From assembly GCA_030704615.1 (NCBI GenBank), contig CM060732.1:65162001-65226000 (forward strand): a stretch of DNA of 64,000 nt, written 5' to 3'. This stretch comes from Takakia lepidozioides (Eukaryota > Plantae > Bryophyta). The notes under the pieces were generated by a model, which did no database searches, was not told the origin of the DNA, and saw only the letters and a list, made by a program, of their open reading frames with translations. A program made the position numbers and the translations under genes. This document shows positions 2,360-58,967 of the stretch, one piece after another; the first letter of the stretch is position 1; each line of letters opens with the position of its first letter.

Positions 2360-2720
2360 TGAAGGCATGCTCCACACATGCCCCACTCTCACCACAAGAG
2401 AATCAGCCCCTTTGCTTCCTTTCTTGCACCCACCAACCTGAAAATACAAGCTTCAGCGGGCTGAAAGCATGCTCCACACATGCCTTACAGGGAAACCAGC
2501 CCCTTCCTTCCTTTCTTGCACTTCCAAACTTGAAAGTACAAGCCTTCAACAGGCCGAAAGCATGCTCCACACATGCATTGCCCTCACATAAGGGAAGTCA
2601 GCTCTTCCCTCTTCCTTGCTTGCCCTCCAAGCATGAAGATGGAAGCTTCAATGAGCTGAATACATGCTCCACACATGCAACCTTTTCACATAAGAGGTAT
2701 CAGCCCCCTATCTTAGCTCC
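2360..2720. repeat. ~100-bp tandem repeats with core CATGCTCCACACATG in the element 5' region
   Basis: Core at ~2366, 2468, 2561 and 2663; mirrored at ~50975-51290. Confidence 0.8.
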
Positions 2721-20600: not shown

Positions 20601-23600
20601 ACGTTGGTAGTAAGACTCACCTTCATATATAGAATTAATCCGGGTTTTCCAGATATCCTCTAGAAATCCCTTCACACAAGCATTAATCTGCTGTGTGTGA
20701 TTTGCCCAAAAACTAGGCCTCAGGAGGGCCTGGGCTTTTGGCTCAGCCTCGAGACTTTCAAAGTGTTGGTAAACAGGGGTACAGGCACAATTCCCTTGAT
20801 AGAGTTGAAGAGAGCGTCTCTTTGGTGAGAGAACCCCGGACAGTGTATCAGAAAATGAATACTGTCTTCAGATTGCCCCCACAATGGGCAATTGCACTCT
20901 CCCTTTCCTCTCTGCTTCTGTTGCTGTTCAAAGGTAGGCTTCCTGCCCTGAGTTTAAATTTCAGTCTAGTGCCGAGAGTGGGTAGACCCTGGAGGTCATC
21001 CAAGATGTCCTCCCCCATGTCACTGACTGGAAACAAGTTCAGGGAAGTTTTCTGCCTAACTTCATTTTCATCAGACAATCTCATTGCAACAGACATGGCT
21101 TTGGACACTACAGCCTCTAAGTCAGATTTATCCAGCAGGGTCAAGACTTGCGGATCCAGGTCCAGGTCCTTGAGAATCTCTTCTACTCTCTTCTGCCAGG
21201 GTCTCCCTGTCCTCTAGGAAGCCTATTGACATTGGGTGGACTTGAAACGGGAGTACATTAATGTCTCTGTGACTAAATGCCGGCCTTGTGACCTCATGTT
21301 CTTGTTTGTTTCGACCTGAAGCGCTTTGCTTCAGGTAAGGTAGTGCATTGGATTTAGTTGGAAAGCTTGGGGCCTTTCCCTCTTTAGCCTACACGGGCCA
21401 TTCCCTGCAACTCCCTGGAGTGTGATCTCTGAATGGTAACAAGCGGACTCCTACCGCTTGGGGGCAGCCCCTCCGCCCAAATTGGGCAGTCGTATGCTCT
21501 GTCTAGCATACTCGGCACTTGGGCTCGGGTTGGTTCCTGTGCTTAAAACTAATGATATTCATATCTGTGCTGGGCAAGAAACATGGGAAACGTCGGATAA
21601 ACTGGTTGGAGATGTCATTGGTTATAAATGGGCAGGTAAGATGTGTACTCTCAAGGCAGCCTCTGCCAAACGTGGTCAAAAAGGGGTCGGATTCTTTGTC
21701 CGTGATTTCTTGTTTGACAATTGTGAAATTATCAACAAGGGTTTGAGGTACAAGCATAGTATCTGGCTAAAACTGAATTTGAAGGGCGGCATGAGTACAA
21801 AGGACCTCTTTGTTGGTTGTGTTTACATGCCCACAGAGGGGACCCTTAGTGCTGACGCAGTCAAGGCCTTCGAAGATGTAAAGCTGGACTGTGCTTCGTT
21901 CCTTGCCAAAGGTCAGGTGGTACTATTGGGGGACTTCAATGCCCGGGTGGGCAAAGGGATCCATCAGGACGATATCATTGGACCTTTTGGTGAGGACGAG
22001 CTGAATTCTAATGGCAGACGGTTAATTAACTGTCTAGAAGAGCTTCAGCTTTTGACCTTGAATAACAGGACAAGAGGTGACCAAGTGCAGTGGACTCGTG
22101 AGAAATCCCAAACTGGGGAACGTTCCATTGTGGACTATATCATAATGGACAAAATTTTGTTCCCCCAGTGTGCCAATGTGTTGATCGACAGAACTGATAT
22201 TGGTACCCTCTGACCACTTCCTGGTTTGGACTGAGATCAAAAGGTGTTTTCCCACCACCAAGAGATCTGTGAAACGTTCGATTCGGAAGTGGCGCATGGA
22301 AAAATTCCACAATGAGGAGGTCAAGGCTGAGTACGTCCAGGCCTTGCAAGAGGCTCTCCCTCATTTTGTCCAATCACTCCAAGAACTTCAGTCACGCTTT
22401 GTTAACGCAAGAAATGAAGTTGAAAGAGCAGTGGACTCTTGGGAGAGTTTTGTTCCTCCGTGGCTGACAAGATCATTGGGAGGAAACTAATTGTCTGCGG
22501 TAGAGCAGTTAATTGGTGGACTAATGAGATTAAACTCAAGATAGCTGAGAGACGAGCCCTCTATAAAGAGTGCTGCAATTTGAAAACCAACAGAGAATTG
22601 TGAGCGAGGTACTACCAGCTCCGTAAAGATATCAATCAACTTGTTAGGTCTCAGAAGAAATTATACTGGGACAAGTTATACAGTGAAATAAACTCAAACC
22701 ACCATGGTGGTAATGACAAGAAATTCTGGTTGGCCCTTCAACGTTTGTACAAGCCGAAAAACGGTCAGCAAGTACAACCGCTGAAGACTACTAAAGGTGC
22801 AGTGGTGACTTCATCGGTTGACATTGTCAAAACCTTTGAAACTCACTACAGTATCCTTGGCAGAACTTCTAGGTCTAACAGTGAGGGGTCTTCTGCTGAA
22901 TGGAGGGACACAGTTGGAAAAACTGTTCCTATGATTCAAAACAGCCCTGATGAACTGGAGTATATTTCAATGGCTTATAATGCTCCCATTAGTTCTTCTG
23001 AGATTGTGGAAGCAATTGAACATTTAAATGGATATAAAGCTGGTGGACCTGATGGTATTGTCAACGAGCTTATCAAGCACGGTGGCGATCCCATGATAGA
23101 GGCCCTAGTTCTCCTCTTTAACCTTATCTGGAAGACTGAAATGATCCCCTTTCGCTGGCGACAGGGGGTCATTGTCAATCTATATAAGAAGGGTGACAGA
23201 GAAGAACCGGGGAACTACCGTGGCATCACGCTCCTCAATGCTGTTGGCAAGACATTCTGCAGAGTTATAAGTACTCGTCTCGAGGTTGATCTGGAGTCTA
23301 GAGGTTGTTTCCACGAAGGCCAAGCTGGCTTTCGGCGAAACAGGGGCTGTGTGGATCATATCTTCACTCTAAGCCAGATTATCCAGGGAAGGAAAAAAGA
23401 AGGGAAACCCACTTATGTCTTTTTCCTGGATGTCAAAAAGGCTTATGACACAGTGTGGAGAGATGGCCTATGGTTCCGCCTCTGGTCTTGTGGGATCAAG
23501 GGAAAGATGTGGAGAGTTGTCCACAACTTGTATGCTCACACCAAAAGCTGTGTCACTGTTAACAGACAGAAGTCCAACTTCTTTGACATAGACCAAGGTG

Positions 23601-26600
23601 TAGCTCAAGGATGTACTCTCCCCTCTGCTCTTCAATGTTTTCATCAATCAACTCCTCGAGGATGTGGAAAGTGAGGGATTTGGGTTAAGGGTGGGTGATA
23701 CCACCATACCAGCCCTTATGTTTGCGGATGACTTCGCAGGCATAGGGGAGACTCCAACCAATCTCCAGGAATTGATTGATTGCGCGAAGAGATACTTTGA
23801 TCTTTGGGGGCTAGAGGCTAATGTCAGCAAATGTGCAGTGGTAGCATTCAACGACAGAGGAGAGGGAGGAAGTGATCTTAAGTGGCAGTGGGGTAGTCAA
23901 GAGATCCCGGTCCTCCCTTCCTACACTTACCTGGGCGTTGAGTTCTCCTCCAATTGTAATTGGGATGCACATATCCGGAAAGTTGTTCAAACTGACAAGG
24001 GCAAAGCTCTGGGGCTCACTAAATTTTTCCACTGCAGAGGGGTCAACTCTGAGGTTAAGAAAACCATGCTTTGTCGCGTTATTAGACCTGCCTTGGAGTA
24101 CGGATCTGCTATATGGGTTGATAACTCCAACCAGGCTAAGTCTCTAGAATCCATTCAAGTGGGGGTGCTTAAGGAGTGTATGTCAGCATGCTCCAAAACA
24201 GCCAATGTGGCAGTTCGGGGTGAGTTTGGCATTCCGTCCTTAAGCTCCCGACGAGATGAATTCAAGGTCAGATGGTGGGGTCAGCTGCAACATATGCCCA
24301 ACACCAGATATCCTAAGTTAATCGACTCTATATCTTGGAAACAGGACCGCCCTGTCAAACAGGCTAAGTCCTGGCAGAAGAGAGTAGAAGAGATCCTCAA
24401 GGACCTGGACCTGGATCCGCAAGTCTTGACCCTGCTGGATAAATCTGACTTAGAGGCTGTAGTGTCCTCAGCCATGTCTGTTGCCATGAGATTGTCTGAT
24501 GAAAATGAAGTTAGGCAGAAAACTTCCTGAACTTGTTTCCAGTCTGTGACATGGGGGAGGACATCTTGGATGACCTCAAGGGTCTACCCACTCTCGGCAC
24601 TAGACTGAAATTTAAACTCAGGGCAGGAAGCCTACCTTTGAACAGCAAACAGAAGCAGAGAGGAAAGGGAGAGTGCAATTGCCCGTTGTGTGGGCAATCT
24701 GAAGACAGTATTCATTTTCTGATACACTGTCCGGGGTTCTCTCACCAAAGAGACGCTCTCTTCAAATCTATTAAGGGTATTGTGCCTGTACCCCTGTTTA
24801 CCAACTTTGAAAGTCTCGAGGCTGAGCCAAAAGCCCAGGCCCTCCTGAGGCCTAGTTTTTGGGCAAATCACACACAGCAGATTGATGCTTGTGTGAAGGG
24901 ATTTCTAGAGGATATCTGGAAAACCCGGATTAATTCTATATATGGAGGTAAGTCTTACTATCAACGTCAGCCCCTGACAGAGGTAGGTTCTGTCCCTTTT
25001 GTTCCCGCTCAAACTGGGCGCGGGGTCAATGGCCACAAGGCTACGGCAAACAACGTCTTATGAGTACAATCTCTTCTGCCAGGACTTAGCCTGTTTGACA
25101 GGGCGGTCCTGTTTCCAAGATATAGAGTCGATTAACTTAGGATATCTGGTGTTGGGCATATGTTACAGCTGACCCCACCATCTGACCTTGAATTCATCTC
25201 GTCAGGAGCTTAAGGATGGAATGCCAAACTCACCCCGAACAGCCACATTGGCTGTTTTGGAGCAAGCTGGCATACACTCCTTAAGCACCCCCACTTGAAT
25301 GGATTCTGGAGACTTAGCCTGGTTGGAGTTATCAACCCATATAGCAGATCCGTACTCCAAGGCAGGTCTAATAACGCGACAAAGCATGGTTTTCTTGACC
25401 TCAGAGTTGACCCCTCTGCAGTGGAAAAATTTAGTGAGCCCCAGAGCTTTGCCCTTGCCAGTTTGAACAACTTTCCGGATATGTGCATCCCAATTACAAT
25501 TGGAGGAAAACTCAATGCCCAGGTAAGTGTGGGAAGGGAGGACCGGGATCTCTTAGCTACCCCACTGCCACTTAAGATCACTTCCTCCCTCTCCTTTGTC
25601 GTTGAATGCTACCACTGCACATTTGCTGACATTAGCCTCTAGCCCCCAAAGATCAAAGTATCTCTTCGCGCAATCATTTCTTGTCATTACCACCATGGTG
25701 GTTTGAGTTTATTTCACTGTATAACTTATCCCAGTATAATTTCTTCTGAGACCTAACAAGCTGATTGATATCTTTACGGAGCTGGTAGTACCTCGCCCAC
25801 AATTCTCTGTTGGTTTCCAAATTGCAGCACTCTTTATAGAGGGCTCGTCTCTCAGCTATCTTGAGTTTGATCTCATTGGTCCACCAATTAACAGCTCTAC
25901 CGCAGACAATTAGTTTCCTCCCAATGATCTTGTCAGCCACGGAGGAAACAAAACTCTCCCAAGAGTCCACTGTTCTTTCGACTTCATTTCTTGCGTTGTC
26001 AGAGCGAGACTGAAGTTCTTGGAGTGATTGGACAAAGTGAGGGAGAGCCTCTTGCAAGGCCTGGACGTACTCAGCCTTGACCTCCTCATTATGGAATTTT
26101 TCTATGAGCCACTTCCAAATCGAACGTTTCACAGATCTCAGTCCAGCTTTACATCTTCGAAGGCTTTGTCTGCGTCAGCACTAAGGGTCCCCTCTGTGGG
26201 CATGTAAACACAACCCACAAAGAGGTCCTTCGTACTCATGCCGCCCTTCAGATTCAGTTTTAGCCAGATACTATGCTCGTACCTCAAACCCTTGCTGATA
26301 ATTTCACAATTATCAAACAAGAAATCACGGACAAAGAATCCAACCCCTTTTTGACCGCGTTTGGCAGAGGCTGCCTTGAGAGTACACATCCTACCTGCCC
26401 ATTTATAACCATTGACATCTCCAACCAGTTTATCCGACGTTTCCCATGTTTCTTGCCCAGCACAGATATGAATATCATTAGTCCGAAGGACTTGTCCCAC
26501 TTCGAGTTGTTTCCTTTGGTTAGTAAGCCCTGAGAAGTTGAAAGTGGCCAGCCGCAAGCCAGCCCTTTGCATGTGAATTGTTTGTCGTCTAGGTAGCTTG

Positions 26601-27826
26601 TGATTGCTCCTGGACGGCCAACCGTTCTGCAAAGGGGGGACAGTTACCCCATGTGTAGATTTTGCTCGTCTTGTGTAAACTTTGAGAATTGGTAAACCAT
26701 TCAGGGTACCAAATCCTTCAGTTACACGACGCACAGGCTCCGCACACTTAGGGGTATATTGTCCGTCAGACTGCTTGGGGACAATTACCCCGTGTGTAGA
26801 TTTTGCTCGTCTTGTGTAGACTTTGAGGATTGGTAAACCATTTAGAGTACCAAATCCTTCAGTTACACGCCGTTCAGGCTCTGCACACTTAGGGACAGAT
26901 TGTCCATCTGACGGCTTGGGGACAATTACCCCGTGTATAGAATTTGTTCATCTTGTGTAAACCTTGAGGATTGGTAAACCATTCAGAGTACCAAATCCTT
27001 CAGATTCAGGACGTTCAGGTTCTGTACACTTAGGGGCATCTTGTCCTTCTGGCTGTTTGGATTCAACCTCATTCAGAGCATCAAACCGATTAGAAACTCT
27101 CAAGTTGAAGTCCTTGCCCTTGGTTGTCTTCCTAGAGCGCCCCATTGAATCACCAATGTCTAAGACCGCTCTCCAGCCAGTCAAGGGACGAACTTCTTTG
27201 AGATTGAATTGATGTGGGACTCTATTAGAAGCACTTTTGGTCATTGCAACCTTCAACGTACCCCTGTTATCAAGTCTCGAGATGGAACCATTAGCCATGA
27301 AATCCAAGCCTAAGCTAGAGCATGTAGTTTTAAAGGACACATCGTCCATCCTGGGATTCACCCCAAAAACTACACATGAAGCCCTAGATTTGGCATAAGT
27401 AACCAATTCCCAGGAATCACCCTGGGGAGTGTTGATGTTGATAGGAGCTAAAATTTTGATTGATCTCGCAGGCTATAAGTTTAAGCACAGGAACCAACCC
27501 GAGCCCAAGTGCCGAGTATGCTATACAGAGCATACGACTGCCCAATTTGGGCGGAGGGGCTGCCCCCAAGCGGTAGGGGTCCGCTTGTTACCATTCAGAG
27601 ATCACACTCCAGGGAGTTGCAGGGAATGGCCCGTGTAGGCATATTCTAAAGAGGGAAAGGCCCCAAGCTTTCCAACTAAATCCAATGCACTACCTTACCT
27701 GGAGCAAAGCGCTTCAGGTCGAAACAAACAAGGACACGAGGTCACAAGGCCGGCATTTAGTCACAGAGACATTAATGTACTCCCGTATCAAGTCCACCCA
27801 ATGGCAATAGGCTTCCTAGAGGACAG

Positions 27827-27903
<77 letters not shown>

Positions 27904-28286
27904 CTCATAAGACGTTGTTTGCCGTAGCCTTGTGGCCATTGACCCCGCGCCCAGTTTGAGCGGGAACAAAAGGGACAGAACCTACCTCTGTCAGGGGCTG
28001 ACGTTGGTAGTAAGACTTACCTTCATATATAGAATTAATCCGGGTTTTCCAGATATCCTCTAGAAATCCCTTCACACAAGCATCAATCTGCTGTGTGTGA
28101 TTTGCCCAAAAACTAGGCCTCAGGAGGGCCTGGGCTTTTGGCTCAGCCTCGAGACTTTCAAAGTTGGTAAACAGGGGTACAGGCACAATTCCCTTGATAG
28201 ATTTGAAGAGAGGGTCTCTTTGGTGAGAGAACCCCGGACAGTGTATCAGAAAATGAATACTGTCTTCAGATTGCCCACACAACGGG

Positions 28287-28327
<41 letters not shown>

Positions 28328-29854
28328 TAAGGGACTGTGAGAAAAAGTTGGGGGAGGGTGGGTGGGCTATAAAGGGCTGGGTTCAGAGACCTGGAATAGG
28401 AGCTAACTGCAAGTGGATCAAGCTGTGGATTATCTTTGCTCTTTCTCACTGCTCTTGTCTTGAACTAAAATAGTCTAACAGGTTTGAGTTTTCTTGTTGT
28501 ATGAGCTAAGAATCCTCTTTCCCATTCATGGTCCAGAAATATGCTGCTGAATGAAGCAGGTCAGCTGAAAATTGCTGTCCTTGCATTTGAAGTATGCAAA
28601 CTACTTCCAGGGACATCCAACAGTGGAGTTGAGCTCTACCGCACTGGTGAAGTAGGCTCATGTAAGTTCTATCCTTCCAAGTGAATGGTCCACATTTAAT
28701 TTGGTTGTCCATGCTTGGTTTGCATGTGTTTTGGATGACTTGGTGAACTCATTTATAGAGTTTGTTCTCTCCAGTCATATCTCACAGCAGTAGTTGGACA
28801 TCAGTGGACGAAGGCTCATCAACTGTAGCTCTGAGTGACAGGCAAGAGTCAAACAACTGAGCCAGTGGATAATGCATGAAATAGAAGACTTGTATATACC
28901 ATTGCAGGCAACCATTTACTCCCATCATACAAGGCAGGGACTGTAGCTACTGGCTTAAAGTGCTCACCTAGGAACCAGGATCAGAAGGGGAACTGGGTGG
29001 ATCTTGTTAGATCTGTGCAGGTGGCAAACCTCCTTTCGGCTTAAAGAGGATGTTGTTCATGTCACTCAGAATACATTTTGTATGAAATTTATGAGGATGA
29101 GATGGATGAAAAAACAGACGAGTACATGGCCCCAGAGGTATATCGGAAAGAGGCATTTGATAAAAGCGTGGATGTGTTCTCCTTCGGGCTTATTGTGTAT
29201 GAGGTTTGTCCCCGTGCCAATCTGAAGAACTTGCATCTCTGTGCATAGTCATGTCATCACGTAAATGATTTTTCAAAGAAATGTGATGCTGTGAGTGCTT
29301 AGAGAGAGGAAAGAAGAAGTGGATGTATTTCTCTCATTTCACTGAAAACGGAAGGGTGCAACTTTTGTTGTTCACCACCCATAAACCAGAGCTAAGGGCT
29401 TAAAACCAAACTTCTGACCTTGATTATGAAAATCAAATAATCAAACAGCAAACCACCATTTTCTTCACCGACGAGAGATGTGGGATTGTAACTAAAATAA
29501 AATATTGGGAATGTGTTAATTGCAAGATGCTTTTTCCATTGATGTGTGGTCTCTCCCCTGGTGGGTTGAAACAACAAAATAGTCTCTTCTCCACCAACAT
29601 GTTGAGCTGTCTGTTTGCGCTCCCAAAGCAGAATCCAACTTGTGCAGAGATTCATCCCAATTCTTGGAATGCCAAAATGTAATACTGCAGTTTCTTCAAG
29701 CCAGCAATTTTGTATTGCAGATGTTTGAGGGTTTTGAGAACTATGAAGGTCTGACACCACAGACAATCGCCAAGAAGAGGGCATACGAGGATATGCGGCC
29801 ACCCTTCACAATCAAGGCCTACCCTACTGGCATGGATCAGTGAGTACCAATTAG

Positions 29855-29888
<34 letters not shown>

Positions 29889-32800
29889 GGGGTCAATGGC
29901 CACAAGGCTACGGCAAACAACGTCTTATGAGTACAATCTCTCTCTCTCTCTCTTCCTGGTGGGAATAGAATCTAGAACCATTGCAGTCATCTTTTCTTCT
30001 TCTATTGCCCTCTATACTATGAGATCCATGGGAGATTCCACTGTCTATTCTGCGGAAACCAATCTCTCACTGAAGTCTTCCACTATGAGGAGGGTTTTTT
30101 GTTTCCTCTCTCATGTTTTCTTCCATTTTGTCCCATAAGCTGTATGTCCGCGGACGTTATAAAGCACCATTTCGTTTCATTTCATTTTATTTCTAAGCAA
30201 TGCTCACATCCTAGGTGCAGAGTTCGCATGTGTGTCACTTCAAACCGAGGCCCTCTTCCGGCATACAATCTTCTTCATAGGTTACAAGCCCTTCCACCCA
30301 AGGGACTCGTGGCAAGAGCCCTCGCAACATCTATTAGGCTCAAACTGCAGGTTTCAAGCACTCCTGCTATGCTCGCGTGGACAGTTTTTTTTAGCGCAAT
30401 GGACTCTCTATTGCTTCACTATTGCCAGAGAATCCAGAAGGGTTGGAAATCACATCCAAACAGGATCGCGACAGACTCATTAGAAGGGAGCTTATGGAAC
30501 TACATGTCAGGAGAACTTGGAAGCTACCAAATCTCACAACAAAGCTCCATTTATATCGAGAGACATTCTTGGTTCTCAGAGATGATAGAATCTTGCGGCC
30601 CAATTACCTTTCGCCACCTTTATCTCCTTCCTGAGTGCAATAAACCATCACAGCTAGTAATCTGGCTATGGATCACAAGTCCCCTTGGATCTCCTACTCA
30701 CTGAATTGAGGAATATCACTGCACTCAGGGCATTGGGGCGGTTTCAGGGTGGGCTCCCACACTCTACGGATAGAGACTGGCAGATGGGAAAACCTGGAAC
30801 GGGAGGACCGCCTATGTCCAGTTTGCACAGGGCGCAATCGGGAAATTGAAACTGAAGAACACTTCTTCTTCTATTGCCCTCTATACTACAAGATTCGTGG
30901 GAGATTCCACTGTCTAATCTGCGGAACTCAAACTCTCACTGAAGTGTTCCACTATGAGGATCGCAAAAGCTTGGCAGCTTACCTGCACGAGGCCTTCACC
31001 TTTAGACAATCCCTCGAGCAATAGTTTTAATTTTGGCTCTGGTTCTGTTTCCTCTCTCATGATTCCATTCAAGTGGGGGGTGCTTAAGGAGTGCATGTCA
31101 GCATGCTTCAAAACAGCCAATGTGGCTGTGCGGGGTGAATTTGGCATCCCTCCCTTAAGCTCCCGATGAGATGAATTCAACGTCAGATGGTGGGGCCAGT
31201 TGCAACATACGACTAATATCAGATATCCTAAGTTAATTGACTCTATATCTTGGAAGCAGGATTGCCCCATCAAATAGGCTAAGTCCTTGCGGAAGAGAGT
31301 AGAAGAGATTCTCAAGGATCTTAACCTAAGTCTGCAAGCCTTGACCCTGCTCGATAAATCTGACTTAGAGGCTGCAGTGTCCAAAGCCATGTCTGTTGCC
31401 AGGAAATTGTCTGATGAAAATGAAGTTAGGCAGGAAACTTCCCTGAACTTGTTTCCAGTCTGTGACGTGGGAGAGGCCATCGTGGATGACGTCAAGGTTT
31501 TACCCACCCTCGGCACTAGACTGAAATTTAAACTCAGGGCGGAAGCCTACCTTTGAACAGCAAACAGAAGCAGAGAGGAAAGGGGGATTGCGAATGCCCG
31601 TTGGATGGGCAACCTGAAGACAATATTCACTTTCTGATTCATTGTCCTGGGTACTCTCACCAGAGAGACGTCCTCTTCAAATCCATCAAGGAAATTTGCC
31701 TGTACCTCTGTTTGCTAACTTTGAAAGTCTCGAGGCTGAGCCAAAAGCCCAGGCCCTTTTGGGGCCTAGTTATTGGGCAAACCACACGTAGCAGATTGAT
31801 GCTTGTGTAAAGAGATTTCTGAGGATACCTGGAAGACTCGGATCAATTGTCTGTTCCAAGGTAAGTCATACTACCGGTGTCAGCCCCTGACAAAGGTAGC
31901 TTCTTTCCCTTTGTGTTCCGCTCAAACTGAGCACGGGGTCAATGGCCACAAGGCTACGGCAAACAACATCTTGTGAGTACTTGGCAGCTTACCTGCACGA
32001 GGCCTTCACCCTTAGACAATCACTCAAGCAATAGTTTTATTTTTGGCGCTGGTTTTGTTTCCTCCCTCATGTTTTCTTCCATTCTGTCCCATAAGCTCTA
32101 TGGGCTTTCCGCGGACGTTATAAAGCACCATTTCATTTCATTCATTTCTCTCTTTGAACAATAAACAGATGCAGAGAGGGAAAGGAGATTGTAGTGTGGC
32201 AGCCTGAAGACAATATCCATTTTTTGATACTTTGTCCAGGACATTCTCACCAGAGAGTGACTCTCTTCAGGAACATCAAGAATATTGTCCCTGCACCTCT
32301 GTTTGCCGACTTGGAAAATCTTGAGACTAAGCCTAAAGCCATGGCCCTGGTGGGATTTAATTGCTGGGCAGATCACACGCTTGTGTGAAGGGCTTTCTGG
32401 AAACTCCGAACGAATTGTCCCAAGCTATGTCCCTCTACCTGAGTGAGCCTCTCACAAAGGTAGTGTTTTGTTCCGCCAAAACTGGGCGCAGAGTGGATGG
32501 CCACAAGGCTATGGCAAACAACGTCTTATAAGTACATTCTACCTCTCTCTTTGTCCCACCCAAAGTTCCGCTCAACCTGGGCGCGGGGTCAATGGCCACA
32601 AGGCTACGGCAAACAACGTCTTATGAGTACATTCTTTGTCCCACCAAAATGGGTACATTCTCTGCCTGTCTTCTGACAACATCCAATTTAGCAAACAACA
32701 GTGTAGATTCTCATTCTTGAGCTTATGAGGCTTTTTCCACAACCACCTAGCATCGTGCATGAACACTAGTCTGTGATGGGTTGGCTTAGCAAGGAGATGC

Positions 32801-37951: not shown

Positions 37952-40114
37952 ATGGATCCTTATGGGCCCCCTCGTAAGAGGCCAAGACCTGAGATGACAT
38001 CGAATGGAGGTAATGGGACTAACGGAGCGGGGAGTCAACCTAACGCAGACCTTGAATGTAAGGTTCTCTCTTTTTTTTATCCAAGTTTGTGCGCTTTTCT
38101 GCTTTCGACGTATCTTCACAGCCTTTGCAGTAACGTCTATGTTGAGCGTATTCGCAGTTGGTTCGTTGTATTCCCTCTCGCTCCCTGTGTCTGTGTGAAG
38201 GAAGTGCTACCACTCTGTTACACTCTGCACATCGCAACACAATAGGAGGAGAGCGTGCTTTTGGTTATTTTATATTGTCGAGCCCACACTTGTCTTTCCC
38301 TCCTTCACTTTTTTTTGGAACCAATCTCCTGGAGCTTTCCAGAGTATCGTGCTGTGCATAATTTCTTTTATTCATATCAAGCATGAGCGTGAGAGCAAGG
38401 TAACGAACATTAGTGTCACACTGAGTATGATACAGGCTAAGAACGGACTCGCCCAGAATGTACGTCAACTGCACGCTCTTGTCTTCTCTGGTCCCTCACT
38501 CAGTTGTCTTGTGTATGTCTTTTGGCTGCACATCTACTTTCGTATGCTTTTTGTATCCATCTGAGTGCGTGGGTGTCCAAAACAACTATCTGCTGTCCTT
38601 TAACTTGCAATGGCAGGATTAATGGAAAGGACTTTCAGGCAATCTAGAGTTGTCCCTGTACGAAATAACGAATAGATCGAGAATCTGGGTTTAACATACC
38701 GTCCATGATTCCTTGGTTTGAAGGGGGATGTTATGGTTATGGCATCGGCACTATCTGAATGGTAGGTGGGTGTTGGGGTTGGCAATGTGTAGACAAACCA
38801 GACCTTGGAGGCTCAGGCACCCGAACTAAGCCCTGTACCAAGTTCTTCAGGTACCTTATTTTCTATTTCGCATAATGGTACGAGTGTCTCACATGTTGGA
38901 TGCTACGTCGTAAGGACAAGTTGACTGGTTTTATGTTTTATCATGATAGAAATCCGGATGGTGTCAAGTCCTCTGTTTTATTCATAAATTAATGTAGGCG
39001 TGAGCATGATGTTTAGCAGTTTTCAAAGTTTGGAAGTATACTCTTCAGTCTGTATCTGAAGTTTAGGAAAGCATGTGCCACGTTTTTACTGACTTCAAGC
39101 TATAAGTAGCAAGTATTTCTTGATCTGAACTTCCTGTTGCTTGGAAGAATGGAGAGAAGTTCCTGTAGTAAAGCTTGAACTCTTGAGATTTCCCTCTTCC
39201 TAGACCAGACCTGATGTTGATGTTGTGTGTGCAGCACATCTGGGTGCCCCTATGGTGAAGGCTGCCACTTTCTGCATTACGTACCTGGAGGTGTGGCAGG
39301 CATGGGGGGTTTGGCACCCCTGGCCAATGTGGGAAGCATGGGCGGCACAGGTGCACGGAAGGTTGTGGGTGGGTTAGGACCAGATGACCAGGGGGCCAAC
39401 CTGGGAGGCTTCAAAACCCGGCTCTGCAACCGATTTGACACAGCTGAGGGCTGTCGCTTTGGTGACAAATGTCACTTTGCCCATGGTGAGAAGGAGCTTC
39501 GGAAATCACACAGTTCAGGCTTACCCCCACTTGACAGGGACACTTACTCTTCTTTTGATTACTCCAGGGCGCCAGGTCCTGCTTCTTCAGTGTCCTACCG
39601 AGGAGGTATGTATGGCTCAGAAGCAGGCCGGTTTGGAGGAGCAGTCCGGGAACGTGATGTTGGCGGTGGCAGTCGCTTTGGTGGTTCATCTTCGTACCGT
39701 GAGCCAACACCCCCTGGCATGGCTGCAGCTGCTTCGTTTGGGGCCTCATCCACTGCCAAGATCAGTATCGAAGCCTCGCTGGCAGGTGCAATCATTGGCA
39801 AGGGAGGCATTAATGCAAAGCAGATTTGCCGGCTCACAGGGGCAAAGCTCTCCATCAGGGAGCACGAGTCAGATCCAACACTGCGGAATGTGGAGATGGA
39901 AGGGTCGTTTGAGCAGATCAAGCAAGCTAGCCAAATGGTCCGCCAGGTGTTGATGCAGCGGGACAATGTACCTGCCCGCCCCAGTGGTGGTTTTGGCTCT
40001 CACAACTTCAAAACTAAACTGTGTGAGAATTACTCGCAAGGGACCTGTACATTTGGCGAGCGCTGCCACTTTGCTCATGGTGCAGCCGAACTGAGGGATG
40101 CGCTGCGCTCTTGA
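37952..40114 (+). CDS. CCCH zinc finger / KH-domain RNA-binding protein (KHZ / C3H36-C3H52-like)
   Basis: Exons 37952-38057, 38802-38850 and 39235-40114. Three C-x7/8-C-x5-C-x3-H fingers (TKPCTKFFSTSGCPYGEGCHFLH; KTRLCNRF..CHFAH; KTKLCENY..CHFAH) and a KH GxxG loop (AIIGKGG). Confidence 0.95.
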
Positions 40115-49690: not shown

Positions 49691-51789
49691 TGGATAAGAT
49701 GTCGACCAAGAAATAAATGACTTATTTATAATAACCAATATGCCTTGAAAGTAGAGGTTGTGGACAACCAAAAAGTCATTGGCCAAGGTGTTTTAGATAT
49801 GTTTAATTAATGCACTTTGGGTGATAACATGAAGCTACTATAAGTTTTAACTTAATAATTATAAAGAACATCCAACAGTATAGAGATTTCTACCTTCAAA
49901 TTTGTTTTTATATGGATTCACATAGTTTCTTAAGTGTCAAGTTATTTTACCACTAGTGTGAAACTAGCTAGGAAATAGCTAGCTTTTACATATTGACATT
50001 GGGATTGGCCCAAGTGTCAATCCAGGGGTCAAGGCAGATTTAGGCCCTAGAGTGGTTATCTTCACGGCAAGCGCGGGAGGCTCATCTTTCTCGAGTTGAG
50101 CCTCACCGCGCCTAGCTATGGCGCCGTAGTGTGGATTCCCCATGGCATGGGGTGCACTTGGCTTGACTTGTATTTGAGTGATGAGTTTATATATGCATGA
50201 GTTTATGTTTCAGCTTTGTGAGCTCGCATGAGCTTGTGCTTGTATTCCTCTACTTTATCACTCGAGAAAGATGAGCTCGTATCTGTGAGTGCCAAATACG
50301 AGTTAGTTGTAGCACTTGTGGTTTTTGCTTGAGAATGAGAGAAACCAGGTTGTTATGCAAGGAGCACCGTGGAGCTCTTGGTTGTTAGAAGCGGAGGCGA
50401 TGTGGGTTACGAGGTGGTAGACCTTGGCATTCGATCTTCAGCTTCAGAGATGAAAGCACCATACTGCAGGTAATTCCAGAGCACCTTGATGGTTTCAGAT
50501 TGTGTACATGCATGAGCAAGCACGATTGAGAAGAGGACTAGTCAAGAGCAGGTTATAGTGGCTTTGGTGGCAAAGCTGATAACTGGACTTGGGAATGCGA
50601 GCTTTCATTGTGTGAAGGATTGCAAGACCAAGCGAAAGGGCTGATTTGGCTTGGGGCAAATCAGTGCACTTTGTGGAGTATGTTGAGAGTGGGTTTCAAT
50701 CTCGAGCTTCAGCATTGGAGGGCTCTTGTCATGGCAAGAGCAGGGCTGGAACAGGAGCTAAGAGGTGCGGCAAGACAATGGAATGTGCACCTAGGGTTTC
50801 AGAGCTTGGAAGAAGAACTCTTGCACCACAAGAGGAGTGTCTTGTGGCTGGAAATGTAAGCCTTAGGGTTTCAGGAGCTTGGCAAAGGCTGTGGAGTGCT
50901 TAGTCTTGTCTTAGAGAGCATCAAGGAGCCAAGGAGCCAAGATAGGGGGCTGATACCTCTTGTGTGAAGAGGTTGCATGTGTGGAGCATGTATTCAGCTC
51001 ATTGAAGCTTCCATCTTCAAGCTTGGAGGGCAAGCAAATAAGAGGTAAGGGCTGACTTCCTTTATGTGAGGGCAATGCATGTGTGGAGCATGCTTTCGGC
51101 CTGTTGAAGGCTTGTACTTTCAAGTTTGGGAGTGCAAGAAAGGAAGGAAGGGGCTGGTTTTCCTTGTAGGGCATGTGTGGAGCATGCTTCCAGCCCGCTG
51201 AAGCTTGTATTTTCAGGTTGGTGGGTGCAAGAAAGGAAGCAAAGGGGCTGATTCTCTGTGGTGAGAGTGGGGCAAGTGTGGAGCATGCCTTCAGTCCATT
51301 GGGCTTCTGTTTTCAAGCTTTGAGAACTAGAAGAGAAGGTAAGGGGCTGATCTGCTCTTATGTGACAGTCCGACACTTGTAGAGCGTGTTCTTAGTTGGG
51401 GTTTCAACCTCAAGCCTAGATAGAGCATGGCTCTTGAAGTGGCAGATGTAGGGGGCTGGAATAGGCTCTAAAACAAATGTTATGGCCAAGGAAAACGCTT
51501 GAATGAGTGCTCACAAGGACTGGAAACCAGTAAGGCTTGGTTGTTTGCCATTGAGTTTAGTGGTGTGTTTGGGGAGTCTAAGTGAGAAAGAATGCTTGGT
51601 TTGTGGCAACCATCTTCCTCATGGCTTAGGGCTACTATTGGTGTGTGTGGAGCCGAAAGAGCAAGAATACCTTGCTGATTTCTTCACAGCCGCCATAGCT
51701 CGGTGCAAAGAAGCCTAGAGTCCAAGAGACACAAACCCTAGCTTGGCATGGCTAAACCCCTTGGAGAAATGGCTAAACTTGCATGAGTG

Positions 51790-52460
51790 GCCATGGATGG
51801 GGCTGTGACGGGCTTTGACGGGTTGTGACAAGCTGTGGCAGGCTGGGATAGGCTGTGCCCTGTGGCCTGTAGGGCTGTGAGGGGCTGTGACAGGCTGTGA
51901 CAGGTTGTGCCCTATGGCCTGTGGGGCTGTGATGGGCTGTGTCAGGCTATGCCCTCTGGCCTGTGGGGCTGTGATGGGCTGTGACGGGCTGTGCCCTGTG
52001 CCTTGTGACCCCTATGACCTGTGACAGGCTGTGGCTGTGACCCTTGTGACTTGTGTAGGGCTGTGACAGGCTGTGCCCTGTGGCCTGTGGGGCTGTGACG
52101 GGCTGTAACAGGCTATCACAGGCTGTGGCCTTTGGGGGGGCTGTGACCTCTGACCTATGTAGGGCTGTGACGGGCTGTGACAGGTGGCCTTTGGGCTGTG
52201 ACCCCTGTGACCTGTGTAGGGCTGTGACAGGCTGTGCTGTGGCCTGGGCTGTGACGGGCTATGACAGGTTGTGGCCTTTGGGGTTGTGACCCCTCTGACC
52301 TGTGTAGGGCTGTGAGGGGCTGTGATAGGCTGTGCCCTATGGGCTGTAGGGCTGTGACAGGCTGTGGCCTTTGGGGCTGTGACCCCTGTGACCTGTTGTG
52401 GGCTGTGAGGGGCTATGACAGGCTGTGACCTGTGGCTTTTGGGGCTGTGACGGCTGTGAC
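51790..52460. repeat. GGCTGTGA-type degenerate tandem array in the element leader
   Basis: Direct reading; reverse complement of the 1480-1860 array. Confidence 0.9.
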
Positions 52461-53221
52461 CAGTGATGTATGTGTGGGCCTGTGTTGGTCTGTGGTGGCC
52501 CGTGTTGATCTGTGGACGGCCTGTGCTGACTCGTGGAGGCACTGGTGGACTGCCTAAGGACTGGCATGTCTTGAAGGCCGAATTTTTGAAGCTCGTGGAG
52601 GGCGGTTTGAGGAGTATTTTCATGATATTTCCCATGGTCATGCAAGTGAGGGAAGAGAGAGAGAAAAGAGTGTTGGGATGAGGGCATGTTGGGGTTAGGC
52701 ATTGCTTTAGCTTCTCTTCCTCGTAGTTTTCCACCCTCTCATTAGGCCAAGACCTTTCCGTAGGTGGAGGCAAGAGTCAGTCCGGGTTTGGGCTGGGGTA
52801 TCCTTGCAGGAGCAACACCATGGAGTTGTTTTGGTATGGGGGAGTTGTCGTTCTGATTTCTTGTGTTTGGATCCCCTCCATACCTGCATGCTTGACTGTG
52901 CGCCATGTTAGTTTGTTGTGGGGCGCTTGTTTTATAGGTGATTGGTCGGATTTAATCACCGGCCAGTCCTAGAGCATGGTCGATGATGAGGCTGGGGTGA
53001 TGACCAGTCAGACCATCATTGTTTCTCCTGTGGTGAGGTTGGAGGTGATGACCAGCCAACCATAGGAGTGCTTGCGGTGGATGCAGGTGCAGGTGTAGGC
53101 TGTGTTAGGAACCTAGTATTCCAAACCATAAGCCACAACAGGTTCTCTACCCAGTTACATTGTGGAGAGGGGGTTAGGGACATGTTCATGACCGGTTGAG
53201 TGACAGTTTGTCAACACGGAG

Positions 53222-55358
53222 GTGCCACTAGTTGTTGGGGACAGTGCCGGTTCGAGCACTAGCAATACTAGTGGGTACACGAGACGAGGTGTGCGGTTTA
53301 GGCCACCTTCACCTCTTGTGTCTTCTACGGAAGGTTCTGATTCGGATTGTGAATCAGGAGGACTCACACGGCGGTGCAAAGTTGTTTCCTTGCCATTGTT
53401 GTGGGACACAATGGAGGAGATCTATGGAGCTACCAAGGGGCCACGAAGGTACTCTGGGGCAGTGGGCACCATCGAGTTGGATGATTTTATCCAAGAGTTT
53501 GATAGTTGGTGTGATTTGCAGCAAATGCGCAATCCACAACTATTTACGCCTTTCATGGCATGGAGGGGGCTGTTTCAGCACCTTGAGGGCCGCCTATGGA
53601 TGATTACCATGAGTTCAGGCGGGGGCATGAGGTTGAGATCGAGGAGTGGAGGATGTACTGGTCACCCGACTATGTCTCCATCACTAGGGGCACTAGAGCC
53701 ACGAGGGCAGTGGCTACACCAGCGCTGCACCGGCAGCTTCAGCAAGCAGCAGTGGGACTAGTGGGACTGGTGATACCGTAGTTATGACGTCCACCCAAGC
53801 TACTGATGCACCAGCACCAGTGGCGATGCCTGCCTTCAACCCTGTTGTGGAGTTCTTCGAAGAGTTAAAAGAGAACTACCAAGGGGTGAGGACAAAGAAG
53901 TTGCAGAGCTTGCAAGAGTTCCAACGGAAGCCGATTGAGAGCTTGAGGGAGGCTTTCACTCGCATGAGGCGCTTGATAAATGTAACCCAAGGGGTTATGG
54001 AAGCTCAGGCAGTCCAATTCTGGTATGGGATATTGGACAAGGAGCTGAGGAGAAGGGTGCGGGATGCAACTCTCCTACAAGCGGGCCCAACCACCTTAGC
54101 AAATGTGTTTTTGCTGGCAGAGCGGATAGAGCTCAACATGGTGGAGGAACAAATGGTCATGGTGGGATTTGCTAAGGAGACACCACGGGGTAGTGGTGCT
54201 CCTAGCCAACCACTACCTCAACATGCTCAAAGCAACAAGGGGGCTCAGGTGAAGCTCAGGGAAGGGCAGAGAGAGGACCTCAGATGCAAGGGTCTCCCTT
54301 CATTTGCAGGCCAACAACGGGCGGATGTGGTGTGTTGGACATGTGGAGGACCCCACGTCAAGAAGGATTGTCCAGAGGGAGGCAAAGGGCCAGCACATGC
54401 ACAGCCTGCACAGTTGAAGTGTGGGCATTGTGGCAAGCACGGGCATGGAGAGGCCCAGTGTTATGGTTTGCATCCTGAGTTGTGCCCAAGCCAGTTCCAA
54501 GGGAACAATGGTGGCCGAGGGCGAGGTGGAGCAGCCCAAAGAGGACGAGGTGGCCAGGCACGGGGTGTAGGCCAAGGGAAAGCTCAACATGGCCAAGGAC
54601 GTAGAGGTCAGGGTGTTGACCAAGGCATGGGCAACCGGCTTCAGCAGCTAAAGCAGAGGCTCGCTGCCATGGCTACAGCTCAGGTGGTACCGGCTCCAAG
54701 GCCGGATGGTCCACCTCCTGCTCCTGAGGGAGAAGATATGGGAGGCATGGGATTCATGTGCGGAGCAGCACTACCACTAGTGCAGGTGGAATCTGCTACA
54801 GCCATGACTCGAGGAGCAGCACGAGTTTCTGAGCCACAAGGTGTAGAGGTGGAGTTGGATCCACAGCGTGGGGAGACAAGCCATCAGGCTAGGCTCCCTC
54901 AGTCATTCACATTGGCGGAGACGGTGTCGACGCCATCCATGACACCTAGTTCTCGCCCAACTGTTACCGAGGCGGAGGTTACTACGCGATTGGGGAGAGC
55001 TACACGGGTAGCACCACTACCTAGTGTTGCCAAGGCTACGGCAGCTAGTGTGCTGCTGGGAGCGGCCATATCTGTGTGTCAGGCTCCATTGTTCTTGGCT
55101 ACCATGATTGCGACGCCGGGGGTAAGACCAGCTAAGGTGTTCAGGCTGGCAGCTACACTCTATGAGAGTGGGGAGGTTACTTCATCTTCTGTGGAGATAA
55201 TGGGAGGTGTAGTATCGGAGGGATCCTCGGATTTGAGGGTCAAGACTGCCACGGCGGCGCCATGGCAAGCTGCAGCTACCAGGTTGATGGAGCTGCCAGC
55301 TAGGCCAGCCATTGAGCGCGCCATGGTGACACATGGAGTTGTCATGTTAGACAACTAG
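53222..55358 (+). pseudogene. gag: Gag with two zinc knuckles and an RGG-rich tract (frameshifted N-terminus)
   Basis: FQRKPIESLREAFTRM (retrotransposon gag core); CWTCGGPHVKKDC; CGHCGKHGHGEAQC; GGRGRGG repeats. Confidence 0.85.
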
Positions 55359-55373
55359 GATGGTATTTTCTGT

Positions 55374-55790
55374 TTGAGTGGACCGGCAAGCAAGAGGTAC
55401 CGGCCACTGCGGGTCTTGTTGGACTCGGGAGCTCAGCCATTGATGCTGGGCAGAGCTGCAATTGCAGGCTTGGGCCTCACGGAGGTGGATATGGAGCCTT
55501 GTCCTTTCCAGATACAGACGTCTCTAGGAGGATCGGAGCAGGCTCGGGGCATGACACGGCGTGAGTTGGCTATCAGACTACAGCCAGATCACCCTACAGA
55601 TGGCTCAGTGATGCAAACCAAGGCCATTGTGACAGATGTGGTCTCATACGATGTCTTGGTTGGTGGAGCAGTGTTGTACCCCATGGGCTTCACCCTGGAT
55701 TTTTGGGAGGAGTCAGCTTCCTATAGGCCTGGATGGCAGTCAGGGGAGGGTCGGCGTGTGCAGCTCCCTGTGACGTTCATAGGAGGAGTT
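55374..55790 (+). pseudogene. Retropepsin-type aspartic protease
   Basis: VLLDSGAQ catalytic motif and YDVLVG(G) motif, in frame with Gag across a single TAG. Confidence 0.85.
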
Positions 55791-56127: not shown

Positions 56128-57090
56128 ATTTGTCTTCTGGACTTGTTTGGCGGGATCAGCACCGGATTGGCTGCTGTGTTACAGGCAGGTGTACGAGTTC
56201 GGCGTTACCTATATGTGGAGAGGGATGAGACTGCACGACGTGTTTCACTTTGCCATGTTGCTCAGTTGGTGCAGCGACACCCTGAGTTGTTGCCGGTGTC
56301 TGCAGTTCGTGGATATCAGCAGGCCTTGTCAGTAGACATTTCGTTGTTGGGGGCGCAGGATTTGGAGCGGGTTGGCTCCATTGATTTGGTAGGGGTAGGT
56401 TGGCCCTGCCAAGGGCATTCATCAGCCGGGCATGGCAATGGATTGTGAGACTCGAGGTCGGGTCTATTTTGAGAGATGGTGCGGATTTTGCGCCACTTGC
56501 AGCTTCATCAAGCTATATCTCCCGCATACATCTTGGAGAATGTGCCACTGATGGGCGATTCTCAGGCTAGGGTGATGGCCAGTGTGCATCAAGTCCGGTC
56601 ATGGCTTGGGTCAGCAGTGTTGCTAGATGCAGCTACAGTGGGGTCACGGGCTCATCGTCCACGGCTATGGTGGACTAACTTGATGCCACCCGCACTGCTC
56701 AAGCGTGCATTTGATGGGGTGCAGCGGCCAGCACATCTCACAGTGGATAGCATTCTGGACACAGGGAGGCAGTCTCAGCGTGTGAGACACGATGACCGTT
56801 CGCCTTTAGCAGTGGTCAACAAGGTGGGTCAACCACGAGCAGCATTACCTACACTGCTCAGCTTCCCAGGATCGCATGTTTTCCGGGATAGTGGACCTGG
56901 CCTCATGTGGGATGCTCAGTTGCAACAGTTAGTGGAGCCTAATGCTGACGAGCGTGAGCGGGCAATGGGTTTTACCACTGGTACCACGGCGGTGTCATCT
57001 CTTTCTGAGGCATCACGTCGTCAGGTGTTGGGACAAGCAATGGATCTCAATTGCTTAACTTGGATTATCAGCTTGGCTATGGCTGAGCAA
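56128..57090 (+). pseudogene. C5 cytosine DNA methyltransferase domain (DNMT3-like) within the retroelement polyprotein; two in-frame stops
   Basis: Motif I LLDLFGGI, II YVERD, III DI, IV GWPCQG, V D.RSGLF, VI ILENV, VIII AHRPRLWWTN, IX ERERAMGF, X RRQVLGQAM, in canonical order across ORFs 56032-56448 and 56476-57339 (same frame). Confidence 0.9.
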
Positions 57091-57419
57091 CGCAGAGTGC
57101 GGAGTACACTTCCCTCGATGGTCTCTCTGCCTACCGAGACGGTACAGGCAGTGAGTGGGGGCGAGCATGTGAGGACCACGGGGTGTAGGCATCCATGGCA
57201 CACGTGGGAGGTGCTCGAGGTTCAGAGGGAGTTGGCAGGTGGCGGTGTGATGGATGAGGCTGGGGATTTTTCTCAGGTTGAGGAAGTCCTCGAGGATGAT
57301 GAGATGATGGGGCAAGGCAAGATGAGGCCTTGTCATTGACTGAGCGGGTAGGGAGTACTGCTCAAGAGGTTGCAACATAGCAACCACTGGATGTGTCCTC
57401 TACCTCTAAGCCCATTGGA

Positions 57420-57672
57420 CTTAAGGTTGTAGTTACGGAAGACAATTGGGAGCCTGACATTGGACCCATTGTCACCGAAGGAGAGAGACGACATACACGG
57501 CGGTTCCTGAGGGCTTACAAGAATTGTTTTTCCTTCAGTTTGAAGGACTTGGGAGCACTGAAGGGTCAAGAGATCCATATTGAGTTGGCCACTGACACGC
57601 CAATCTTTCGGAGACCCTATAGATACAGTGACATGGAGAGGTCTTTGATTCAGATGAGGACTCAAGATCTCT
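57420..57672 (+). pseudogene. Pre-RT/N-terminal RT stub; remainder of RT and RNase H missing
   Basis: FSFSLKDLG..IHIELATDTPIFRRPYRYSDMERSLI is the typical Gypsy RT lead-in. No YxDD or RNase H motif occurs before the integrase. Confidence 0.75.
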
Positions 57673-57700
57673 GGGAGGTCAGGTTGGACCTACAACAGGG

Positions 57701-58967
57701 ATGACTGTAGACGGAGTGTCTGAGGACCCTGAGGCTAGTGATGAGCCAGGTGGTACTAGAGATATACATGAGGATTCGGCTGTGTTGGACTACCTCCGTA
57801 CTGGAGACATGGCAGCCACTGTGACTGCCAAGGAGAGGGATCGGATCCTGCAACGAGCCAAGAGGTTCAAGTGGGAGGGGATACACCTGCTCCGAGTATG
57901 GGAGGATGGTCGGGTGAGGATTGTGCCTCACCCCACACAGCGTGCACGGTTAGTGCGGCATGCCCATGAGGAGTTGGGGCATTTTGGAGTGCGACACACT
58001 CACAGTTTACTGCAGGGGCAGTATTGGTGGCGTGGTATGCATACAGAGGTGCAACAGTTCGTGGCTAGATGCATGGTGTGTAATAGGGTGCGTGCTCATT
58101 CAACGCCCCTACACGATAGTTGCATCCTTTATTAATCATGGGATTGGGCTACAAGTGGAGTCTTGACTTCGCAGGACCATTGTCACTGACTATGCGCCTC
58201 CACAGATATGTGTTGGTGATGGTGGAGCACTTCTCCAAGTGGATTGAGTTGGTTCCATTGCCTGACAAGGCTAGTGAGGGGCTGCGTATGCATTCTTGGA
58301 TCGTGTGCTTAGCCGATTCGGTGCTCCAGCTGAGGTACTCATGGACCAAGGGAGACAGTTCTTGGGGGAGTTTCAGGCTTTGTGTGATAAAGCCTTGATA
58401 GACCACCGCACCACTTCTCGGGATCATCCTAAGGCCGATGGCTTGGCAGAGAGAGTTGTTCAGACGGTGAAGAGGGGTTTGCGCAAGTATGGCTTGCAGA
58501 AGGGACACCTAGGAGATTGGGATCTTCAGGTTCCTTAGTTAGCCATGGGCTACAGGTTCAGCAAACAAGCATCACTTGCCTCCTTCTCACCATATTTCCT
58601 TCTCTTTGGCCAAGAGCCGGATTTGCCTACAGCCATTCGTAGGGACACTGCTCAAGTCCTTAACCTTGACGATCCGGACGTGTGGGTATGTGCATGTGAT
58701 CAGCGCACAGAGTTGTTCAAGAAAGTCATGCCCATGGCTTTTGAGAACCTTGCCATTGCACAGCACCGTGATACGTTGAGGTATGCCACTATACGTGGTG
58801 GAGGATATCGTCTTGGGGTTCGAAGGTTTAGCCCTGGTGACTATGTTTATTTGCAGCAGACTACTCCTACGACTCTGGATGTTACTGCAGGGCATGTTAT
58901 TCTGAGGGTTTGAGAGGTGTTGCCCTCAAGGGTCCTGATCTTGGAGGGTCGGGATGGCATGACTTGG
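57701..58967 (+). pseudogene. Integrase (H2C2 zinc-binding + rve core), frameshifted
   Basis: HAHEELGHFG..YWWRGM..CMVC; WSLDFAGP; EHFSKW; DQGRQF; HPKADGLAERVVQTVKRGL; FSPYFLLFG; FSPGDYVYL. Confidence 0.9.

Follow-up and report, generated by a model that had tools for sequence, protein, structure and literature searches.

The window (the stretch of 64,000 nucleotides analysed here) contains a decayed, inactive member of a family of Ty3/Gypsy-type retrotransposons. The elements of this family encode a DNMT3-like C5 cytosine methyltransferase (DNMT) of their own. In this family, which is abundant in land plants, the DNMT ends a reading frame that also holds Gag and the protease (PR), and a conserved in-frame stop codon follows before reverse transcriptase (RT), RNase H (RH), integrase (INT) and a PHD finger. 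The reading that we consider probable is a single Gag-PR-DNMT frame, a leaky stop and then RT-RH-INT-PHD, such that output of the DNMT would match that of the capsid and the enzyme would probably methylate the cDNA newly made by the element itself.

A DNMT3-like domain in a decayed Gypsy copy

The sequence-only reading had proposed a DNMT3-like domain from its motifs, and all the motifs that it named were found in one frame (Table 1). Motifs I, IV (PC), VI (ENV), VIII (RxR) and X are canonical and stand in the non-permuted order of C5 methyltransferases. The PF00145 search that the same reading had suggested gave a match at E = 3.3e-11 and 43.6 bits (cut-off 22). When PDB sequences were ranked against the window domain, DNMT3A came first (2.8e-10), followed by DNMT3B (4.7e-7), a DRM-type enzyme (4onj; 1e-3) and M.HhaI (3.5e-3), and a 67-row family profile returned the same order with wider gaps (6e-26, 4e-23, 9e-15 and 2e-10, respectively). 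The model of the window copy was poor in its C-terminal half/target-recognition region (pLDDT 65.6, 19-row alignment) and had DNMT3A as its best fold match; the model of the intact relative L002 reached a pLDDT of 96 and matched DNMT3A-DNA complexes at TM 0.73 (query) and 0.81 (target). By sequence and profile ranks and by fold matches the window domain is nearer to DNMT3 than to DRM, DNMT2 or bacterial enzymes, and its identity as a DNMT3-like C5 methyltransferase is confirmed.

Table 1. Features of the element, its methyltransferase motifs and its sister copy in the window
Feature	Positions	Strand	Basis
Sister copy, 5' part (end, leader, gag start)	1-3721	-	blastn, ~90% identity; inverted repeats I1, I6, I17, I19
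Element 5' end (TGTCA start) and long 5' region	49935-53410	+	sister-copy homology begins at 49935
gag, two zinc knuckles (54333, 54420)	53411-55355	+	tblastn against Marchantia Mp4g09160 residues 1-876
Aspartic protease, LLDSGA at 55416	55359-55790	+	homology to Mp4g09160; motif
DNMT3-like C5 cytosine methyltransferase	56128-57090	+	Pfam, PDB, fold; frame break at 5' edge
LLDLFGGI	56134-56157	+	DNMT motif by translation
GWPCQG	56398-56415	+	DNMT motif by translation
ENV	56536-56544	+	DNMT motif by translation
AHRPRLWWTN	56650-56679	+	DNMT motif by translation
ERERAMGF	56950-56973	+	DNMT motif by translation
LGQAM	57028-57042	+	DNMT motif by translation
Conserved stop and 3' context TAG CAA CCA (CAR-YYA), candidate readthrough signal	57378-57386	+	family comparison
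RT lead-in, ends at internal deletion	57387-57678	+	alignment to intact L025 ORF2
Integrase (H2C2 zinc finger, core)	57761-58967	+	PF17921 E 3.6e-16; PF00665 partial

The placement of the domain between the protease and the RT lead-in, as first proposed, was confirmed in the window: a linker of about 130 codons separates protease and DNMT, and the RT lead-in lies 3' of the latter. Tandem repeats occupy about 51780-52480 within the long 5' region. No Pfam match was obtained for the window protease, and its relatives give weak matches to Asp_protease_2; the N-terminus of the Marchantia Gag matched Retrotrans_gag clusters in the Atlas and was weak in Pfam. The sister copy extends past the window edge.

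The window copy carries many lesions. Frameshifts are present near the start of gag, a stop at 55356 precedes the protease at a place that is open in the relatives, the two TGA stops noted earlier in the DNMT were located at 56446 and 56470, and the integrase is frameshifted and cut before the PHD finger and the 3' repeats. Compared with the second ORF of L025, the window lacks any counterpart of residues ~104-556 (RT core and RNase H, about 450 codons) and of everything beyond residue 956 (PHD).

Four public sequencing runs, three labelled with the same organism and one from a plant metagenome, were mapped to the element with a likeness threshold of 82%. For run X1, 63,942 contigs were placed along 6.5 kb, and all 30 bins were covered in three of the four runs, a depth that does not equal copy number. 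At the TGA stops a different letter made up 99.4% (56446) and 99.9% (56470) of the X1 depth, in 85 and 71 contigs, respectively. Loose ends accumulate at 56129, 57678 and 58967, with 57678 seen in three of the four runs. The stops and deletions are therefore lesions of the window copy, and the family is multi-copy. This bears out the earlier proposal that the lesions arose by decay after insertion, other copies having another letter at both stops in more than 99% of the X1 depth. Similarly, since about three quarters of the X1 depth near 57311 differs in length from the window copy, the frame shift there is not the state of the family. In the same-species runs, sites all along the DNMT domain are represented by dozens of variant contigs (40 of the 635 difference rows are listed).

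Between 53000 and 59500, the differences between the window and other copies in run X1 are mostly transitions with A/T in the window (188/317), a bias that decay of methylated cytosines following insertion would produce. CpG depletion is 0.48 in the element and 0.46 in the window, and no self-methylation signature was found in CpG and CHG depletion.

Relatives, element ends and phylogeny

A search with the domain returned 292 proteins of similar length (120 of these listed) and 62 longer ones; among the matches listed were proteins from Marchantia polymorpha, M. paleacea, Calypogeia fissa, Riccia sorocarpa, Sphagnum troendelagicum and S. fallax, with up to 75% identity. For the relatives from Marchantia, Calypogeia, Sphagnum and Klebsormidium taken together, identity ranged from 36 to 75%. 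The single ORF of Mp4g09160 (1278 aa) aligns to the window from gag through the protease to beyond the DNMT. It is one of six Marchantia Gag-PR-DNMT ORFs of 1248-1281 aa (the others are Mp8g17980, MpVg00370, MpVg00540, Mp5g06330 and Mp5g06860), all of which terminate at a matching place, about 78 residues past the DNMT domain at the protein level. Two of the intact ORFs, both of 1281 aa, are on the Marchantia V chromosome (P0425/P0426 = MpVg00370, MpVg00540).

In a scan of metagenomes, 317 relatives were confirmed and 80 loci obtained. Where flanks were available the order was always Gag-PR-DNMT-RT-RH-INT-PHD; these loci were retrieved through the DNMT, and the rate of DNMT-less relatives is therefore not readable from them. 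The Gag-PR-RT-RH-INT order is seen in the intact relatives L025, L081 and P0491, and the DNMT3-like domain lies intronless inside the Gypsy coding region of the relatives. A profile search gave 612 clusters at E <=1e-30, a figure inflated by flanks within the profile. No family locus was found in the viral contigs searched. In the prokaryote genomes searched there was one locus, L081; this is a retrotransposon contig included in a bacterial genome that was assembled from a metagenome, where it is most likely a contaminant.

These relatives bear on three claims of the earlier reading, and all three stand: that a Gypsy-type element encodes its own DNMT3-like domain (relatives hold it at the same place in intact frames), that the domain belonged to the active element (its position is the same in liverwort, moss and algal elements, and the Marchantia frames are intact), and that this is a land-plant branch of the kind of element described by de Mendoza et al. 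in 2018 (liverwort and moss copies share a clade with the K. nitens protein). The observations that it had named as contrary, namely family members lacking the domain, an adjoining poly(A) and a missing PF00145 match, were not made; no poly(A) was seen by eye beside the window DNMT.

Split repeats of the form A1…polypurine tract-B1-A2-B2 were identified in L050, L066, L054, L061 and L052 (of 25 loci, many of them cut short). Like the window element, the relatives start with TGTCA, and they end with GACA. Among the eight insertions with both ends visible, exact 4-bp target duplications were found for five separate insertions (L050 = L066, L034, L054, L061 and L023), one mismatch was present in L018, and L052 and L068 were ambiguous. 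The TG…CA ends, polypurine tract and 4-6 bp duplication of Ty3/Gypsy elements are thus found in the relatives, and the window copy keeps the 5' TG end only. Instead of two plain LTRs with a tRNA primer site, the relatives have split repeats, and no TGG primer site was seen by eye right behind A1 in L050 and L054. From their TG…CA ends and 4-bp duplications, the relatives insert by an integrase-type mechanism. The window copy presumably had the split-repeat structure as well and lost its 3' end.

The joint between B1 and A2 consists of CA, two bases and TG and resembles a two-LTR circle junction (L050:14498-15066, L034:10230-10805). Some copies terminate at B1 with a 4-bp duplication of their own (L023, end at 14612). 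Two other classes were considered and rejected. A DIRS or tyrosine-recombinase element does not fit the rve and H2C2 integrase, and there was no recombinase match. Troyka, considered for the odd ends, is described with CG…CG ends and 3-bp duplications and from animals only (PMC12440569), which do not fit.

A DNMT tree was built from 293 rows covering 85-90% of the domain, drawn from 406 proteins and 18 picked loci; the DNMT trees hold element-borne rows without host DNMT3. The tree divides by layout into clade A (98 rows, SH-like support 0.986) and clade B (195 rows): no clade-A row has RT upstream of the DNMT and no clade-B row has RT downstream of it. Clade A contains Klebsormidium nitens GAQ93235.1 and Closterium proteins, and the window DNMT is sister to liverwort and moss copies, which makes a bryophyte host likely. 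In a 55-row maximum-likelihood tree, whose root is arbitrary and was set in clade B, 40 rows including K. nitens fell into the first clade (UFBoot 89; 38 of the 40 at 99), which supports common descent with the K. nitens element, and the stop-type group (window, liverworts and Sphagnum) had a UFBoot of 99. Most clade-A elements were also grouped by the RT and integrase trees (0.96 and 0.99), with one or two long branches outside.

The proteins of clade B (P0157-P0282), a large sister clade, have the layout RT-RH-DNMT-INT-PHD, with the DNMT between RNase H and integrase. The species names obtained for it are those of two chlorophytes, Monoraphidium neglectum and Cymbomonas tetramitiformis. In the same metagenomes an A2 family was found with overlapping gag and PR-DNMT-RT-RH-INT-PHD frames (L054:8228-8351), an overlap that suggests frameshifting. 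In motif IV, WECQ takes the place of WPCQ in 17/98 clade-A rows (A2 loci and Closterium) and in 99/195 clade-B rows.

The catalytic Cys is present in 93 of the 98 clade-A rows and the motif VI Glu in 97, and both are present in all 195 clade-B rows. The dN/dS of the DNMT was 0.13 for L024/L025 (dS 0.27), 0.10 for L054/L053 (dS 1.0) and 0.06-0.10 for the window against Sphagnum-type copies, where dS is saturated; there is purifying selection on the DNMT between lineages. In young Sphagnum-type copies the DNMT value was 0.39-1.05 versus 0.19-0.36 for RT (L002, whose RT stretch is disturbed, was left out), which would fit decay after insertion and also a constraint weaker than that on RT. We consider it likely that the family's DNMT is catalytically active.

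The stop codon between the methyltransferase and the reverse transcriptase

A single plain ORF for PR-DNMT-RT-RH-INT, as the earlier reading envisaged, was not supported: this subfamily closes its Gag-PR ORF with the DNMT, and a conserved in-frame stop follows. A layout with DNMT, RT and RNase H in one ORF was found only in sister groups, the A2 loci and Closterium P0414. The TAG at 57378 is a conserved feature of the family and not another product of decay.

For 58 of 81 surveyed loci the DNMT end and the RT lead-in were at most 600 bases apart, and these were sorted by hand into 35 stop-type and 23 A2 junctions; with the window added there were 36 stop-type junctions. A stop followed by CAR-YY was present in 34 of the 36 (29 TAG and 5 TAA), the two exceptions being frameshifted copies, and the full CARYYA in 6 of the 36. 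The conserved stop after the DNMT is absent in A2 loci, and the stop with CAR-YY was absent from 23/23 A2-group junctions. As background, CARYYA followed 2 of the 768 TAGs on the + strand of the window. The Sphagnum-type family supplies 28 of the 34 CAR-YY rows, and the independent lineages number about five. The hexamer differs by lineage (CAACCA in the window, CAGTTA, CAACTA, CAATCA, and CAACCC in the Sphagnum-type family, where the sixth base is C or T in 27/28 and the form mostly CAR-YYC). Because the second codon after the stop encodes Pro, Leu or Ser depending on the lineage and the YY pattern is unchanged, the constraint is on the RNA.

The DNMT and RT are in the same frame at 26/34 metagenome stop-type loci. 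Two open frames with one stop between them are found in L025 (1369 + 1047 aa, TAG CAG TTA) and in L081 (1162 + 1047 aa, TAG CAA TCA), and the first Met of the second ORF is residue 116 in both. UAG and CAR-YYA with an in-frame downstream ORF, the type I arrangement, was found in the window, L024, L025, L045 and L081. In the four runs no difference reached 8% of the depth at 57376-57387, and the neighbouring positions 57375 and 57388 differ in more than 60%. The z-scores for RNA structure 3' of the stop were -0.94 (window), -1.00 (L002) and -2.73 (L025), and no structure shared by the three is claimed.

CAR YYA after UAG is described as the readthrough signal of TMV, with about 10% readthrough in vivo (PMC2754532), and the family has the same stop and CAR-YY(A) with the polymerase in frame behind. 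From this pattern readthrough at the conserved stop is likely. The stop lies after protease and DNMT and not between gag and protease. In SIRE1, it is the envelope that is reportedly reached by readthrough. Because the stop behind the DNMT is likely leaky, the DNMT would be produced at Gag stoichiometry, far above the replication enzymes.

Possible role of the methyltransferase and relation to known elements

In the mechanism that we propose, a single RNA would be translated to Gag-PR-DNMT and occasional readthrough of the stop would add RT-RH-INT-PHD. The protease would then free the domains inside the particle, which would hold about as many DNMT molecules as capsid subunits; this release and packaging we regard as reasonably likely. 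The simplest substrate of the DNMT would be the new cDNA, inside or beside the particle, and we put the cDNA as the main substrate at about even odds. The PHD finger on the integrase may read chromatin at the target, and the new copy would arrive pre-marked, either mimicking host DNA or damping its own expression. DNMT3 catalytic domains are slow and act as oligomers, and a large output may therefore be needed. Against this proposal, LTR elements in these genomes presumably manage, for the most part, to transpose with no DNMT, and the yeast result for K. nitens given below also counts against it. New cDNA as a substrate was proposed for Pol-fused DNMTs by de Mendoza et al. (PMC5890265).

With the same layout, the abundant DNMT might instead act mainly in trans, on host chromatin or other copies, or bind nucleic acid without methylating. 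An output at Gag level exceeds the apparent need of one cDNA, Glu takes the place of Pro before the catalytic Cys in the WECQ rows of clade A described above, and no methylation was obtained in yeast with the K. nitens domain, a result that its authors call inconclusive (PMC5890265). However, the canonical PC is kept in the window copy and the stop-type clade, the fusion to Gag favours action in cis, and the host DNMT3b of P. patens is reported to account for 95% of CHH methylation (PMC6453930), which leaves little room for a role in trans there. We consider action in trans or mere binding unlikely.

RT-RH-INT-PHD might also be expressed without readthrough, through splicing across the stop, reinitiation or an internal promoter. 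Three gene models (P0126 and P0128 from Marchantia and P0159 from Sphagnum fallax) join DNMT to RT with the junction omitted, but they omit different stretches, as ab initio predictions would. For reinitiation there is an ATG two codons after the hexamer start, just past the stop, in the Sphagnum-type family, whereas an early Met is absent after the stop in the window, L025, L045 and L081. The junction of Candida Tca2 is reported to have directed weak promoter activity and no readthrough in yeast (PMC2194720). Against all three routes, the CAR-YY pattern has no role in splicing, reinitiation or an internal promoter, and one contig of run X12, which is RNA only by our guess, crosses the junction unspliced (a weak point, X12 missing part of the DNMT). 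These routes are, in our estimate, even less probable than action in trans, and readthrough is preferred. Finally, a one-off capture, in which a host DNMT3 retrocopy or nested insertion is confined to the window copy and to which the frame breaks on both sides of its DNMT might point, is refuted by the presence of this domain at an unchanged position in elements of liverworts, mosses and algae, by DNMT, RT and integrase trees that group largely the same elements, by the multi-copy domain seen as variant contigs in the same-species runs, and by an identity of about 22-24% to DNMT3A but 60-75% to element copies.

The nearest known system is KnitGypsy-Dnmt3, a Gypsy element of Klebsormidium nitens with a DNMT3 (de Mendoza et al. 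2018, PMC5890265), and on sequence grounds the window family belongs to its lineage and extends it to land plants. Both are Gypsy elements with a DNMT3-like domain that is intronless and non-rearranged, with DIRS-like repeats and with purifying selection, and the split repeats together with an ordinary DDE integrase in the relatives of the window element fit the 'DIRS-like' repeats described for KnitGypsy-Dnmt3. Unlike that element, the present one has a land-plant host, and its Gag-PR ORF closes with the DNMT and is followed by a conserved stop, whereas the DNMT of KnitGypsy-Dnmt3 is described as part of a Pol ORF that also holds RT and RNase H; in this subfamily these are in the same frame and split by the stop. 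The K. nitens protein GAQ93235.1 (Gag knuckle-PR-DNMT, 36% identical) is partial and ends 12 residues past the DNMT. It is presumably a copy of KnitGypsy-Dnmt3, and the K. nitens layout may be nearer to the stop-type family than the text of the paper says.

EpiLTRs and DAM-LTRs (bioRxiv 10.64898/2026.05.21.726589) and SymbioDIRS-Dnmt3/SymbioLINE-Dnmt are also described as retrotransposons with methyltransferases and chromatin readers, but they belong to other enzyme clades (DAM, DNMT4-sister) or element classes, and the EpiLTR DNMT is placed at the 3' end of pol, unlike the Gag-PR-fused DNMT found here. The host PpDNMT3b (Yaari et al. 2019, PMC6453930) is likewise a non-rearranged DNMT3-type domain in bryophytes, but it is a cellular gene and not element-borne. 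The accessible text of the 2026 preprint names 'streptophytes (Gypsy-DNMT3)' without Marchantia, bryophytes or land plants, that of PMC12344493 likewise says 'streptophytes' and names no land plants, and the main text of Neumann 2019 contains neither 'methyltransferase' nor 'PHD'. Our literature search found no description from bryophytes or other land plants; the supplements of the 2018, 2025 MBE and 2026 works may list copies. As far as checked, the land-plant range with intact Marchantia ORFs, the capsid-fused position of the DNMT ahead of a TMV-type stop, and the division of the DNMT between two positions across green algae are new.

Taken together, Gypsy elements with split repeats that form an old clade of the green lineage might have captured a DNMT3 once and shifted its position (RH-DNMT-INT in chlorophytes, PR-DNMT-RT in streptophytes), and the land-plant branch might have added the TMV-type leaky stop, giving particles with a capsid-level de novo methyltransferase that would mark new copies, and perhaps host DNA, in bryophytes including Marchantia. 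We offer this combined scenario tentatively and as a less than likely one. The role of retrotransposon-borne DNA methyltransferases has been open since 2018, partly as the hosts are hard to work with, and since methylation mutants exist in the genetic model Marchantia polymorpha, its intact Gag-PR-DNMT frames bring this role within reach of a test. The stop junction predicts Gag-level enzyme output, which is not stated in the descriptions of these elements found so far. Bryophyte DNMT inventories and gene models include element-borne DNMT3s filed as hypothetical genes, and LTR finders may misread split repeats.

Elsewhere in the window, a cluster of nested, partly inverted, near-identical fragments with GA microsatellites occupies 15700-32600; judged by their motifs (endonuclease- and RT-like frames), these are probably LINE fragments. 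By motif, the exons at 11656-13087 presumably belong to an ankyrin-repeat protein kinase. A host KH/CCCH zinc-finger gene lies at 39221-40114, and its nearest Atlas clusters are from Streptophyta.
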